This document shows positions 18,582 to 22,520 of a stretch of 64,000 nt of DNA, in pieces (positions within the stretch are counted from its first letter, which is position 1; every line of letters starts with the position of its first letter). The stretch is from an uncultured Gaiellales bacterium (lineage in GTDB: Bacteria > Actinomycetota > Thermoleophilia > Gaiellales > Gaiellaceae). The notes under the pieces were generated by a model. The model saw only the letters and a program-made list of their open reading frames with translations, was not told where the DNA came from and did not search any database. Made by a program: the position numbers and the translations under genes. The stretch covers positions 542 through 64,541 of the forward strand of contig CAZQRA010000005.1 of the NCBI GenBank assembly GCA_964595575.1, written 5' to 3'.

Positions 18582-19592
18582 TCAGTAGCCGAGTAGCCGC
18601 ACCTCCTCGCGACGCTCGCGGGCGAAGAAGTGGATCCCGTCCACGAACCGCACCCAGTTGCAGCGGGTACACATGACCAGGGAGTGGGTGCGGGCGCTGT
18701 CGGCCAGGAACCGCACCCCACGCAAGAGATCGCCGTTGGAGACGCCGGTAGCGGCAAAGATGATCTCGCCGGGAGCGAGGTCGTCGATCGTGAACACCCT
18801 CTCCACGTCCTCGATCCCCCGCTCCCCGGCGGCCTCGATCTCCCGCCGAGAGGTGGGCCAAAGCTGGGCCTGGAGCTCACCCCCCAGGCAGCTCAGGGCG
18901 GCGGCGGTGAGCACGGCCTGGCGGGTGCCGCCGATCCCGATCGCCAGGTGGTCGTTGGTGCCGCGGATGGCGGCCGAGATGGCCGCGGTGACGGTGCCGT
19001 CGGGGATGAGCTTGATGCGGGCGCCCGAGGCGCGCAGCTCCTCGATGAGGTCGTGGTGGCGGGGGCGGTCGAGGACGATGGTGGTGATGTCGCTCGGCTT
19101 GCGGCCGAAGGCGTCGGCGATGGAGGCCACGTTCTCGCCCACCGGCCGCAGGAGGTCGATCCTGCCCTTGGCCCGCGGCCCCACCGCCATCTGGCGCATG
19201 TACATGTCCGGCAAGGTCATGAGCGCCCCCCGTCGGCCCACCGCGATCATCGACATCGCTCCCTGGCCGCCCCGGGCCACGACCCCGCGGCCCTCGAGCG
19301 GATCGAGGGCGAGGTCGACCTCCTCCCCGCCTGCCCCTACCTCCTGGCCGATCGCCAGCTCCGCTCCCTCCTCGGTGGCCCCGATCACGATCCGCCCCGA
19401 GATGGGAAGCTCCTCCAGGGCCGCCCGCATGCCCGAGCGGGCGGCCTCGTCCGCCCCCTGCTCGTCGCCCCGGCCGAGCCAGCGGGCGCCGGCGGCAGCA
19501 ACGCCGAGGTGGAGGCGCGGATGCCCACGCCGATCACGCGCAGAAGCAGGCCCGCCGGCGGGCCTGCTCGCTCGCGGGGGACGATCCCTCAG
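18582..19592 (-). CDS. glpX: class II fructose-1,6-bisphosphatase (GlpX); start codon unresolved
   Basis: C-terminal part of track ORF 18582..21407: ARWLGRGDEQGADEAA..MR, DLALDPLEGR, DMYMRQMAVGP, LDRPRH, IPDGTV, GIGGTRQAV, FAATGVSNGDLLRGV. The first canonical in-frame start (ATG ~19430) would remove the conserved RWLGRGD segment. An in-frame CTG at 19592 overlaps the upstream TGA. Confidence 0.8.
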   Translation of the reverse strand: MRDRPPRASRPAGGPASARDRRGHPRLHLGVAAAGARWLGRGDEQGADEAARSGMRAALEELPISGRIVIGATEEGAELAIGQEVGAGGEEVDLALDPLEGRGVVARGGQGAMSMIAVGRRGALMTLPDMYMRQMAVGPRAKGRIDLLRPVGENVASIADAFGRKPSDITTIVLDRPRHHDLIEELRASGARIKLIPDGTVTAAISAAIRGTNDHLAIGIGGTRQAVLTAAALSCLGGELQAQLWPTSRREIEAAGERGIEDVERVFTIDDLAPGEIIFAATGVSNGDLLRGVRFLADSARTHSLVMCTRCNWVRFVDGIHFFARERREEVRLLGY

Positions 19593-20506
19593 GCGCCGGG
19601 CCCACTCGGTACCGCCTCCAAACGCTCCGCCCCGGCCAGCACGAGCTCCATGACCTGGGCGATGGTGCGCTCGATGCTCGAGTTCTCGATCACGGGGACC
19701 CCCGCCCGCCGGGCCCGCTCCACGATGTAGCTCTGGATGTGCCTGATCTGGGGAAGCGCCCTCAGGTAGCGATCGACCGGCCGCAACCCAGCCGAGGAGG
19801 AGTCCCTGACCCAGAAGTGGCTGGCGTGCTCGGCCTCGTCCTCGATCGCGAGCACGCAGTGCACGGCCAGGGCGCCCTCGATGGAGGGGAGCATGCCGGG
19901 CACGAGGTGCACCCCCTCGAGCACCATCGACCACCCTTCCTGCAAGGCCCGTTCGATCACGGCCCGCGCCCCCACGAGGACGTTTCGGGTCTGGTCGAGG
20001 AAGCCCGCCAACACTGGGTCGCTGGCCTCGTCGTCGGGCAGAGCGTCGCCGGCCTCGAAGCTCGAGTGGTGGATCGAGGGCATGAACTGCTCCTCGAAGA
20101 AGGCCCGCATCGTCTGGCGGATGAAGTCGGTGGAGGTGACTCGGGTGATGCCCAGTCGGTAGGCGACCTCGGTGGCCACCCGCGACTTGCCGGTGCCGGT
20201 GCCCCCGCCGATGAGGACGACGATGGGCAGGTCGAGCTCCTGGAGCTCCCGCCACCGGCGCAGGCGTCGCACGGCCCTTGCCCCCTCCTCCTCTCCCAGC
20301 GCCTCCCGGGCCAACGTCTCCAGCCGCTCGAGGTCGAGGGTGGGCGCGCCCCGGGCCACCAAGTCCTGCTCCACGTGCAGGGCCAGCTCGTAGGCCGGCA
20401 CCGCGGCCAGGCCGGTGGCGATGAGCGCTCGGGCCAGGATCCCCTTCGAGTAGGGAAGGTCTCCTTCGCCCCCCAAGGAGAGGATGTCGGCCCGCCGGTC
20501 GCTCAT
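19589..20506 (-). CDS. 2-phosphoglycerate kinase (ATP-cone + P-loop kinase, COG2074-like)
   Basis: ATG 20506 (MSDRRADILSLGGEGDLPYSKGILARAL = ATP-cone-like). Walker A VLIGGGTGTGKSRVA followed by GITRVTSTDFIRQTMR. ATGA overlap with the upstream gene. Confidence 0.7.
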   Translation of the reverse strand: MSDRRADILSLGGEGDLPYSKGILARALIATGLAAVPAYELALHVEQDLVARGAPTLDLERLETLAREALGEEEGARAVRRLRRWRELQELDLPIVVLIGGGTGTGKSRVATEVAYRLGITRVTSTDFIRQTMRAFFEEQFMPSIHHSSFEAGDALPDDEASDPVLAGFLDQTRNVLVGARAVIERALQEGWSMVLEGVHLVPGMLPSIEGALAVHCVLAIEDEAEHASHFWVRDSSSAGLRPVDRYLRALPQIRHIQSYIVERARRAGVPVIENSSIERTIAQVMELVLAGAERLEAVPSGPGA

Positions 20507-21723
20507 GCCGGGAGCGCCTCTCCCGTTGCCTCCCGGGCCAGCTCGAGGAGGGCGGCGTCGAGGTCGTCCTCGTCCTCGAGCGGCACCAGGTCGTTGCCGG
20601 CCACGACCACCTCCACCCCCCGCGCCCGGGCCGCCTCCACCACCACGTCCACGGCCGCCGCCTTGAGCTCGACCACGAGGACCTCCGCCTCCACCTCCTC
20701 GAGCTCGCGCTGGAGGGCCTGCCGGTCGGCGAGAGAGGACGAGGCATGGACGATCTCGGCGTCCAGGTGGTCGAGGGGGCAAGGCCCGGCCGTGAAGACT
20801 GCCGCCCGCCGCCCCCCCAGGGGCTCGACCGGCCGCAGGCGAAGCTCGGCTCGATAGACCGGCGCAGGGGCGACCTTGCGGATCCGCTCCGCCACCCCGT
20901 CCTCCGCCCCCACGGCCACCACCAGGTCGGAGACGAGGATCCGATAGGGATTGAGGTAGGCGGCGGGATCGTGGCCGCGGCCGAGGACGAGGATACGCTT
21001 GCCGCCGGCCACGGGAGGAAGGGCCGCCCCGCTTCCGTCCAGGAGCACGAGGTCCGGGTCGAGCGCCGCCGCCAAGGCCAGCCCCTCGGCCACGTTGGAG
21101 CTCGCGACCTGCCCGGCCAAGCCGCCCCCGCAGCGACGACAGCCCACCGTGGGCACGCCTGCGAGCAGGGCCACCTCCAGGTAGTCGGAGGCAGCGTGCC
21201 TTCCCGCTCGGGAGAGGCAGAGGAGGTCGTCCAGGGTAGGCGGGGAGGCCACCACCTCGGGGGGAGCGGGACCGCCCCGGCCCATAGCCACCACCGCCAC
21301 CCGCCGGGAGGAGGAAAGGAGCCGGGCGAGGTGGACGGTGAGGGCCGTCTTTCCCACCCGCTTGCCCGTTCCCGCCACGGCGATCGAAGGCAGGGAGGCG
21401 GGCTCAAACGAGGGCGGGTCGAGCCGGAAGTCGGGGCCCACGTAGGGAAGACCCAAGGCGAGCACCCGGCTGGCCAGGCGCAGCCGCTCCTCGGGGCCGA
21501 GGACGGGCTCGTCCGAGAGGTCGAGGACGAGCTCGGGGGCGTGGGCAGCGAGCGCTCCCTCCAGGTCGCGGTACAGGGGGACCCCGTAGTCCTCCCCGCC
21601 CTTCACCTTCTCCGCCCCCCCCACCATCACGGCGGCAGCCACCTCATAGGGGAGGTCGCGGAGAGCGTCGCGCACCACGGGGGCGTAGTGCTCCCCGTCG
21701 ACGATGGCCACCGCCCGCGTCAC
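20503..21723 (-). CDS. cpgS: cyclic 2,3-diphosphoglycerate synthetase-like P-loop protein
   Basis: GTG 21723 (VTRAVAIVDGEHYAPVVRDAL...). Walker A IAVAGTGKRVGKT. About 406 aa. The N-terminal DGEHY motif and size match my recollection of cDPG synthetase homologues. GTGA overlap upstream and ATGA overlap downstream with a 2-phosphoglycerate kinase gene. Confidence 0.6.
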   Translation of the reverse strand: MTRAVAIVDGEHYAPVVRDALRDLPYEVAAAVMVGGAEKVKGGEDYGVPLYRDLEGALAAHAPELVLDLSDEPVLGPEERLRLASRVLALGLPYVGPDFRLDPPSFEPASLPSIAVAGTGKRVGKTALTVHLARLLSSSRRVAVVAMGRGGPAPPEVVASPPTLDDLLCLSRAGRHAASDYLEVALLAGVPTVGCRRCGGGLAGQVASSNVAEGLALAAALDPDLVLLDGSGAALPPVAGGKRILVLGRGHDPAAYLNPYRILVSDLVVAVGAEDGVAERIRKVAPAPVYRAELRLRPVEPLGGRRAAVFTAGPCPLDHLDAEIVHASSSLADRQALQRELEEVEAEVLVVELKAAAVDVVVEAARARGVEVVVAGNDLVPLEDEDDLDAALLELAREATGEALPA

Positions 21724-22520
21724 GCCCCCACCTCCTCCTCCACCTGCGCCGTGTACTTCTCGTAGGCGAGCGTCTCCGTGGAGAAGCGGAGCATCCGCTC
21801 CTGACCGTGGTAGGGGTAATGGCGCCACACGTCCACGTGGGCGCCGTCGATCTCGATCACGTTGTAGCAGGGGCGCGTGTTGCCCCGCAGCCGAAGCGAG
21901 GACACGGTGCCCGCGTTGACGATGAACATCTCCTCCAAGCGCCAGGCGTAGGGCACGTGCTTGTGCCCGCAGAGGACGAGGTTGACCCGGGCCCGCTGGA
22001 GGCACTCGATCGCGTCGCCGGCGTCGTAGACGATGTTCCGCTCCCGGCCGGTACCGGGGACCGGGAGGAGGTGGTGGTGGAGGCAGAAGATGCGGAGGTC
22101 AGCGGGAGCGGCGAACCGCTCCTCGATCCAGGGGTAGCGACCCCGCCCGATGCGGCCGTGATCGAGGTCAGGCTCGGTCGAGTCGACGGCCACCACCGTC
22201 ACCCCGCCCACCCGCAGGGAGGAGTCGCGCTGGCCGAACATCTCCTCGAAGTGGACGTAGCCGACGTTGCGGGAGTCGTGGTTGCCGGGCACCACCACCA
22301 CCGCCTCGCACTCGACCCGCTCCAGGTACGACCGGGCCTGGGCGAACTCGGGCTTGAAGCCGAAGGCGGTGAGATCGCCGCAGCACACGACGAGATCGGG
22401 AGCGAGGTCGTTGATCTCGGCGATGGCGCGCTCGAGCAGGGTGGGCACGAAGTCCGGCCCTCCGCAGTGGAGGTCGGCGATCTGGGCGATGCGAAACGGG
22501 GACGGCGACCTCCCGGTCAC
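21720..22520 (-). CDS. calcineurin-like metallophosphoesterase
   Basis: All five MPE motifs are present: IADLHCG (DxH), CCGDLT (GD), VPGNHD (GNHD), CLHHHLLP (H), CGHKH (GHxH). Confidence 0.85.
   Translation of the reverse strand: MTGRSPSPFRIAQIADLHCGGPDFVPTLLERAIAEINDLAPDLVVCCGDLTAFGFKPEFAQARSYLERVECEAVVVVPGNHDSRNVGYVHFEEMFGQRDSSLRVGGVTVVAVDSTEPDLDHGRIGRGRYPWIEERFAAPADLRIFCLHHHLLPVPGTGRERNIVYDAGDAIECLQRARVNLVLCGHKHVPYAWRLEEMFIVNAGTVSSLRLRGNTRPCYNVIEIDGAHVDVWRHYPYHGQERMLRFSTETLAYEKYTAQVEEEVGA

Follow-up and report, generated by a model that had tools for sequence, protein, structure and literature searches.

Introduction

The synthesis of cyclic 2,3-diphosphoglycerate (cDPG) has been described in the methanogens Methanothermus fervidus and Methanothermobacter (PDB entries 8ORK and 8ORU; PMC10690619, PMC12136491), and a review from 2005 draws the synthesis and hydrolysis of this compound as a side-loop of gluconeogenesis that runs via 2-phosphoglycerate (2-PG) and 3-phosphoglycerate (3-PG) (PMC1224877). 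The hydrolase activity of M. thermautotrophicus converts cDPG to 2,3-diphosphoglycerate (2,3-DPG; Sastry et al. 1992, via PMC1224877), which is the reaction that we tentatively propose below for a bacterial metallophosphoesterase (MPE). An earlier, sequence-only reading of the DNA discussed here had remarked that this hydrolytic step is not known to have an assigned gene; our literature search likewise found none, and the 2005 review gives an activity only (PMC1224877). Here, we describe an operon in a 64,000-nucleotide stretch of DNA (the window) from an uncultured Gaiellales bacterium (GenBank assembly GCA_964595575.1, contig CAZQRA010000005.1, positions 542–64,541 of the forward strand) in which this MPE is encoded next to homologues of the two enzymes of cDPG synthesis.

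Both enzyme families of the methanogen pathway, 2-phosphoglycerate kinase (2PGK) and cDPG synthetase (CpgS), are present in the window in full-length form. The window CpgS resembles the methanogen enzymes in its Walker A sequence (GTGKRxGKT), its Mg ligand and its trans-subunit Glu–Lys pair, and since the families and the active site are shared, 2-PG presumably passes through the same two chemical steps as in methanogens. Unlike the methanogen pathway, the one considered here, known from its sequence, belongs to a bacterial host of 72% GC and is laid out in a single operon that also encodes an MPE and an enzyme of gluconeogenesis. We conclude that the operon probably constitutes a bacterial module for the synthesis and turnover of cDPG, with the MPE as the candidate hydrolase. 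The names of CpgS and 2PGK are already in the annotation; the architecture of the operon, its breadth and the proposal for the MPE are new.

Organization of the operon

The GC content of the window is ∼72% throughout, and the host is a high-GC soil-type actinobacterium that is Thermoleophilia/Gaiellales-like. Six genes lie on the minus strand between 18256 and 24053, encoding an M32 carboxypeptidase, the MPE, CpgS, 2PGK, the class II fructose-1,6-bisphosphatase GlpX and a DUF59 protein. The MPE gene (21720–22520, minus strand; 266 aa, GTG start at 22520) matches the Pfam Metallophos family at 4e-19 and is followed by cpgS (20503–21723, minus strand; 406 aa, GTG start), which was assigned through PDB sequence matches, and by the 2PGK gene (19589–20506, minus strand; 305 aa, ATG start), which was assigned through NCBIfam NF003259. 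The stop codon of the MPE (TGA, 21722–21720) overlaps the GTG of CpgS (21723–21721) to give a GTGA at 21723–21720, and the TGA of CpgS overlaps the ATG of 2PGK at 20506 to give an ATGA at 20506–20503. The sequence-only reading had chained four genes by 4-nt overlaps of this kind; these two junctions are as it described them, but the third, a CTGA between 2PGK and glpX, is not a start/stop overlap (see below).

The N-terminus of CpgS reads VTRAVAIVDGEHY, and the Walker A motif GTGKRVGKT lies within its open reading frame (ORF); this motif and the others quoted in that reading (PYSKGILARAL, GGGTGTGKS and TSTDFIRQTMR) are all present in the ORFs. The public protein calls P0001 (CpgS, 406 aa) and P0415 (2PGK, 305 aa) are identical to the window ORFs. 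No Rfam element was found in the region 17000–26500 and no sigma-70-like promoters were found around the operon; terminator-like matches fall inside genes.

The cDPG synthetase homologue

A phmmer search of the PDB matched CpgS end to end with three entries named 'cyclic 2,3-diphosphoglycerate synthetase': 9sxb (E = 6.8e-67, query residues 5–402), 8oru (E = 2.1e-64, query residues 3–399) and, likewise, 8ork (2e-64). The homology spans both the N-terminal dimerisation domain and the P-loop kinase domain, and the precomputed Pfam assignment of the identical public protein is PF27272 (CpgS_N). The motifs MGRGGP, HAASD, GCRRCGGG, EGSGA and ELKAAAVDV are common to CpgS and its PDB matches, and the identity of the bacterial CpgS to characterised archaeal CpgS is 35–36%. 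The Pfam and NCBIfam copies that were searched carried no CpgS model. A CobQ/MinD-like label, for which they gave only a weak sub-threshold CbiA match, was overruled by the PDB sequence search.

The residues that contact 2,3-DPG and Mg and those that act in catalysis are named in the structure paper on the M. fervidus enzyme (PMC10690619). K145, R146, K149 and T150 are Walker A residues and D208, E404 and K406 are also listed, whereas E45 and K46 come from the partner subunit, in trans (PMC10690619). Two PDB CpgS sequences, reconstructed from alignment printouts, were placed in one alignment with the window protein and 79 relatives. These nine residues (E45, K46, K145, R146, K149, T150, D208, E404 and K406 in M. 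fervidus numbering) are identical in the window protein, in 9sxb and in 79 of the 79 relatives. The full-length matches (E of 7e-67 to 2e-64) and the conserved ligand and catalytic residues thus bear out the assignment of ORF 20503–21723 as a cDPG synthetase in the sequence-only reading. The family is also widely named as such in public resources: JGI applies 'cyclic 2,3-diphosphoglycerate synthetase' to many relatives and NCBI uses the cDPG synthetase name for proteins from metagenome-assembled genomes (MAGs) of Gaiellales, Rokuibacteriota and Bipolaricaulota. Public metagenomic proteins of the CpgS family number in the thousands.

The 2-phosphoglycerate kinase homologue

The best-scoring family for 2PGK is NCBIfam NF003259, '2-phosphoglycerate kinase' (E = 6.2e-82, 275.4 bits), with residues 8–293 of the protein aligned to profile positions 6–292 of 306; the model for mevalonate-3-phosphate 5-kinase scores far lower (83 bits). 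ORF 19589–20506 had been read as a 2-phosphoglycerate kinase, and the NF003259 match (6e-82) upholds this, although its score lies under the equivalog cut-off (see below). The P-loop reads GGGTGTGKS. An ATP-cone, which the same reading had placed at the N-terminus, is absent from the Pfam results even at E ≤ 10, where only P-loop families are listed, and the N-terminal 90 residues align to the NF003259 model. The PDB sequence search returned no solved structure related to 2PGK. Low-phytate papers reportedly link the plant gene Lpa1 to 2PGK-like genes.

The metallophosphoesterase

The MPE scores 70.2 bits against Pfam Metallophos (PF00149), for which the cut-off is 21.5. Its metal motifs are intact (D16xH18, G48D49, G79NHD82, H148–150 and G185H186xH188), and the corresponding DxH, GD, GNHD, H and GHxH elements are invariant in an alignment of 23 operon MPEs. 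The same alignment contains invariant motifs that are specific to the subfamily, namely PGTGRERN (with R159 and R161), LRLRG (with R210 and R212) and EPDL; the invariant arginines also include R84 and R126. So many invariant arginines would suit a polyanionic substrate. MPEs hydrolyse diesters as well as pyrophosphate bonds, and a role on cDPG or 2,3-BPG is chemically plausible.

An AlphaFold (AF2) model of the MPE (pLDDT 86, pTM 0.88) has Rv0805 and GpdQ as its nearest solved folds in Foldseek (TM 0.6–0.7, 16–21% identity). Rv0805 also matches the sequence at 5e-10, over a partial region, and has 19–21% identity by Foldseek. Against the CpdA model NF008359 the MPE reaches 34.2 bits with a cut-off of 225, and all curated phosphodiesterase models are far below their cut-offs, so that the names 'Icc' and 'CpdA' given by annotation pipelines are generic. 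With the class III cyclic-nucleotide phosphodiesterase/glycerophosphodiesterase MPEs (Rv0805, GpdQ and CpdA/Icc) the MPE has in common a calcineurin-like fold and the full dinuclear metal motif set; unlike them, it carries its own invariant motifs (PGTGRERN, LRLRG and EPDL) and occupies a fixed place upstream of cpgS. Judged by its sequence, the MPE belongs to a distinct and highly conserved MPE subfamily. The public call for this protein (P0441, 242 aa) begins at Val25 and so omits D16xH18 (22449–22520, minus strand); in relatives, the alignment begins with residue 1 of the 266-aa ORF, which favours a start at the GTG at 22520.

Conservation among Gaiellales

When one genome was scanned for each GTDB species, at least 360 CpgS relatives emerged, from which the best 80 loci were analysed. 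All 80 come from MAGs classified as Gaiellales, Gaiellaceae or Thermoleophilia, or as Actinomycetota without closer placement; the closest relative is a Thermoleophilia MAG with 83% identity in CpgS. In a tblastn census, the order MPE–CpgS–2PGK–GlpX is present in the 80 loci wherever the contig reaches, so the gene order that had been noted in the window is indeed conserved in its relatives. 2PGK adjoins cpgS in the 80 loci, and the MPE lies directly upstream of cpgS in nearly all of those whose contig reaches upstream, as it does in the more distant loci L083, L085, L086 and L088. The junctions are tight: a 4-nt overlap is found between MPE and CpgS in 49 of 77 loci, between CpgS and 2PGK in 60 of 77 (with a 1-nt overlap in ten more) and between 2PGK and GlpX in 47 of 74, these counts being approximate since start codons were chosen heuristically.

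Distant loci and origin

A wider survey of representatives at 50% identity gave 1012 CpgS homologues at E ≤ 1e-3 and 247 at E ≤ 1e-30, and the family occurs in several bacterial phyla. The MPE–CpgS–2PGK triad, with genes that overlap or abut, recurs in L085 (GC 44%), L086 (67%) and L088 (69%, Actinomycetota), in which the identity of CpgS to the window protein is only 39–45%. Across these three loci, the triad is best conserved in its MPE (52–61% identity, versus the above value for CpgS and 37–43% for 2PGK). 2PGK homologues scoring 310–317 bits follow or precede cpgS in the same loci and in L090.

After the triad, GlpX is replaced in L085 (7325–7972), L086 (7248–7910) and L088 (6305–6970) by a fructose-6-phosphate aldolase (FSA)/TalC-type aldolase/transaldolase (TIGR00875, 280 bits versus a cut-off of 246), next to which rho follows in L085 and L086. 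The fourth position of the operon is thus held by a sugar-phosphate enzyme in both the GlpX and the FSA versions. Other contexts are CpgS–iPGM in Bipolaricaulota and 2PGK–CpgS–apgM–CBS in L090. Phosphoglycerate mutases, of the iPGM or archaeal apgM type, or a mannosylglycerate-synthase-type gene lie at or near cpgS in L084 (6352–7908), L090 (5380–6651), L085 (577–1752) and L087 (2007–3149), and the 9sxb-like cpgS of a vent metagenome sits downstream of a mannosylglycerate-synthase-type glycosyltransferase. In the three loci from Methanothermobacter, Methanothermus and Methanobacterium, a small RimB-like gene (PF05618) follows cpgS each time (L081, 7405–7935; L091, 5361–5939; L092, 6491–7039).

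The sequence-only reading had wished to see an archaeal origin of the genes checked by a phylogeny. Our neighbour-joining distance tree of 71 full-length representatives at 50% identity and the known sequences is star-like and does not give the direction of any transfer between archaea and bacteria; within its poor resolution, the bacterial CpgS clade does not fall inside Methanobacteriales.

The disrupted glpX

The glpX gene (18582–19605, minus strand; Pfam FBPase_glpX 1.5e-102) is disrupted at its 5′ end in the window. Its open frame scores 262.7 bits against TIGR00330 (cut-off 259.3), and the PF03320 match (1.5e-102) begins only at profile position 15. Coupling of 2PGK to glpX through the CTGA at 19592–19589, as suggested by the sequence-only reading, is contradicted by the frame itself, in which there is no ATG, GTG or TTG between 19592 and the ATG at 19430. 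The CTG at 19592 was considered as a coupled start and rejected as non-canonical, the CTGA overlap being a matter of chance; the frame, which is part of a 941-aa ORF, is open upstream only because the DNA is 72% GC.

The ancestral GTG start of glpX remains at 19605–19603, with a 17-nt overlap with the 3′ end of 2PGK as in the closest relative, L001. From this codon the gene reads VGPAPEGSSPASEQARRRACFCA for 23 codons and then meets a premature TGA at 19536–19534, whereas all close relatives continue ...ACICELYARATERAxLAGARWLGRGD. The body frame runs from ∼19500 to 18582, the conserved GlpX segment CICELYARATER is missing, and compared with L001 the window copy has gained a net 10 nt in the interval from the second Cys codon to the Trp codon (19481–19479). 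The public GlpX call has 282 aa from the ATG at 19430 (19430–18582), and its cluster mates mostly have 337–339 aa, with one of 317 aa. The truncation in this call would remove the GRGD...D segment, which includes a metal ligand in GlpX structures. Programmed frameshifting was considered and set aside: two indels, of about +11 and −1 nt, are present, and no slippery site is in evidence. At 19545–19568 (minus strand), just past the 2PGK stop and inside the ancestral glpX coding sequence, lies a perfect 12+12 palindrome, AGCAGGCCCGCC/GGCGGGCCTGCT; it is strong locally, but the 111-nt region around it is not more stable than shuffled controls (z = −1.3).

Flanking genes

Two further minus-strand genes adjoin the operon but lie outside its core. 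Upstream is the M32 carboxypeptidase (22530–24053; Pfam Peptidase_M32 3e-172), a clade-specific neighbour that precedes the MPE in only five of the 80 loci and in L083; its stop codon (TAG, 22532–22530) is 9 nt ahead of the MPE start. Downstream is a DUF59/SUF-associated Fe–S assembly protein (18256–18558; Pfam FeS_assembly_P 3.8e-21), which follows glpX in most loci at distances of 9 to >2000 nt; here, its ATG at 18558 is 23 nt past the glpX stop (18584–18582). Both spacings can be read in the sequence as they had been reported.

A PiT (PHO4) phosphate transporter gene (24143–25264, plus strand) is divergent from the M32–MPE–cpgS string, with a gap of 89 nt, and converges with a 14-nt overlap on a PhoU_div/DUF47 gene (25251–25880, minus strand). 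Of the 80 related loci, 12 have PiT and DUF47 genes no more than 6 kb from the operon, a proximity that hints weakly at a connection of the operon with phosphate. Elsewhere in the window, a 670-aa protein (13637–15649, plus strand) combines two WYL domains with WCX domains and a PafC-type helix–turn–helix, which suggests a tandem PafB/PafC-like regulator. It is adjoined by a gene for a QueG-like epoxyqueuosine reductase (15609–16646, minus strand), and both are near the operon in some relatives.

A proposed pathway

In the pathway that we favour, 2PGK would phosphorylate 2-PG to 2,3-bisphosphoglycerate (2,3-BPG), which CpgS, using ATP, would close to the cyclic pyrophosphate cDPG. That CpgS and 2PGK make cDPG is likely, judging from their family membership and active-site residues. 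The co-translated MPE would serve as a return valve that takes cDPG to 2,3-BPG, or 2,3-BPG to phosphoglycerate, and this step would return carbon and phosphate to gluconeogenesis. The fourth gene may also point to gluconeogenesis, through GlpX in Gaiellales and FSA/transaldolase elsewhere, and the side-loop of the 2005 review (PMC1224877) fits such an operon partner. The phosphoglycerate mutases in other cpgS neighbourhoods would supply 2-PG and so favour cDPG as the product. With the window glpX disrupted, the GlpX part of this operon logic rests on the relatives.

The assignment of a substrate to the MPE is more tentative: that it hydrolyses cDPG or 2,3-BPG is a proposal that we hold with somewhat less than even confidence. 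We infer it from linkage and conservation, and the recurrence of the MPE–CpgS–2PGK core in distant bacterial lineages lends guilt-by-association support to the MPE as the candidate hydrolase. The ppk–ppx operons, which co-transcribe the synthesis and hydrolysis of a phosphate store, offer an analogy in operon logic only, as their enzymes and compound are unrelated. The sequences show homology, conservation of the active sites and of the operon, and overlap of stop and start codons; what the module makes, what the MPE acts on and whether the compound serves as a stress solute or as a reserve of phosphate, carbon or energy are inferred.

Several observations weigh against a cDPG module with the MPE as its hydrolase. 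Papers from 2023 and 2025 describe cDPG as exclusive to hyperthermophilic methanogens (PMC10690619, PMC12136491). Our text searches found no report of cDPG in bacteria and no paper that pairs diphosphoglycerate with Gaiella, the matches in the Actinobacteria literature being irrelevant; where cpgS comes up in further papers, it is only in other archaea. In M. thermautotrophicus, cDPG hydrolysis is a membrane-bound activity that is inhibited by K+ and inorganic phosphate and is reported without a gene (2005 review; PMC1224877), whereas the only matches of the operon MPE are to MPE domains and structures of the soluble type. The substrate of the MPE cannot be read from homology, its nearest characterised relatives being phosphodiesterases of <21% identity. 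The cpgS loci of Methanothermobacter, Methanothermus and Methanobacterium (three Methanobacteriales loci) have no neighbouring 2PGK or MPE. The 2PGK score falls under the curated NF003259 equivalog cut-off (275 versus 343 bits), and two adenosine/ribose contacts of CpgS vary: E305 is kept in the window but among the relatives is E in 36, G in 15, D in 5 and A in 5, among others, and at position T353 the window protein has Ala, while T is found in 62 relatives and A in 16. The window glpX is either damaged, as a pseudogene, or locally mis-assembled through an assembly indel. Lastly, a co-translated synthase and hydrolase would need post-translational control against a futile cycle.

In an alternative reading, CpgS and 2PGK would make 2,3-BPG and cDPG but the MPE would be linked to them through an activity other than cDPG hydrolysis. 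It could be a phosphomonoesterase of 2,3-BPG or phosphoglycerate that sets the pool size, a regulatory cyclic-nucleotide phosphodiesterase or, by analogy with synthase/phosphatase pairs of solute pathways, an enzyme that takes a phosphorylated intermediate to a different end product. The nearest folds and sequences (Rv0805, GpdQ and CpdA-like models) are phosphodiesterases, as the pipeline names Icc/CpdA also say, the known archaeal hydrolase activity is membrane-bound and the archaeal cpgS loci examined are without an MPE. Yet the models of characterised phosphodiesterases are far below cut-off (NF008359, 34 versus 225 bits), and the tight, overlapping linkage to cpgS across lineages, together with a conservation above that of cpgS itself, argues for a substrate within the pathway; we regard a role outside cDPG hydrolysis as rather unlikely. 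It is more improbable still that the two bacterial homologues have changed their substrate and make a different phosphorylated or cyclic-pyrophosphate acid. The low identity to characterised archaeal CpgS (only 35–36%), the two variable adenosine-contact positions and the sub-equivalog score of 2PGK, whose superfamily holds kinases for other substrates (e.g. mevalonate-3-phosphate 5-kinase and plant Lpa1), would all allow such a change, but the 2,3-DPG and Mg contact residues do not vary among 80 bacterial sequences and the two archaeal enzymes of solved structure, long motifs are common to the bacterial and archaeal CpgS, and the neighbouring genes encode enzymes of glycolysis or gluconeogenesis, among them phosphoglycerate mutases that supply 2-PG.

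Finally, the neighbourhood could be conserved without functional coupling, or be a recent archaeal transfer that is carried passively. The 80 loci come from one order, so that their synteny could reflect descent alone, and the M32 and DUF59 neighbours are variable. However, the triad persists at GC contents from 44 to 72% with different flanks, and stop/start overlaps dominate its junctions. The size and diversity of the family in bacteria (247 representatives at 50% identity, E ≤ 1e-30) also speak against this reading, as does a tree, albeit of poor resolution, in which the bacterial clade does not nest within Methanobacteriales. We therefore consider either version to be highly improbable and retain the cDPG synthesis and turnover module as the preferred explanation of the operon.

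In its broadest form, the proposal is that cDPG extends beyond methanogens to Gaiellales/Thermoleophilia and other bacteria, that the MPE gene is the gene for its hydrolysis and that the compound is a regulated phosphate, carbon and stress reserve tied to gluconeogenesis; taken together, this is possible but doubtful. If the pathway is active, a textbook 'archaeal extremolyte' would be extended to bacterial lineages, and new enzymes, possibly easier to express, would become available for cDPG production. The operon MPE would then be nominated for the missing degradative step and for the coupling of the cDPG pool to gluconeogenesis.

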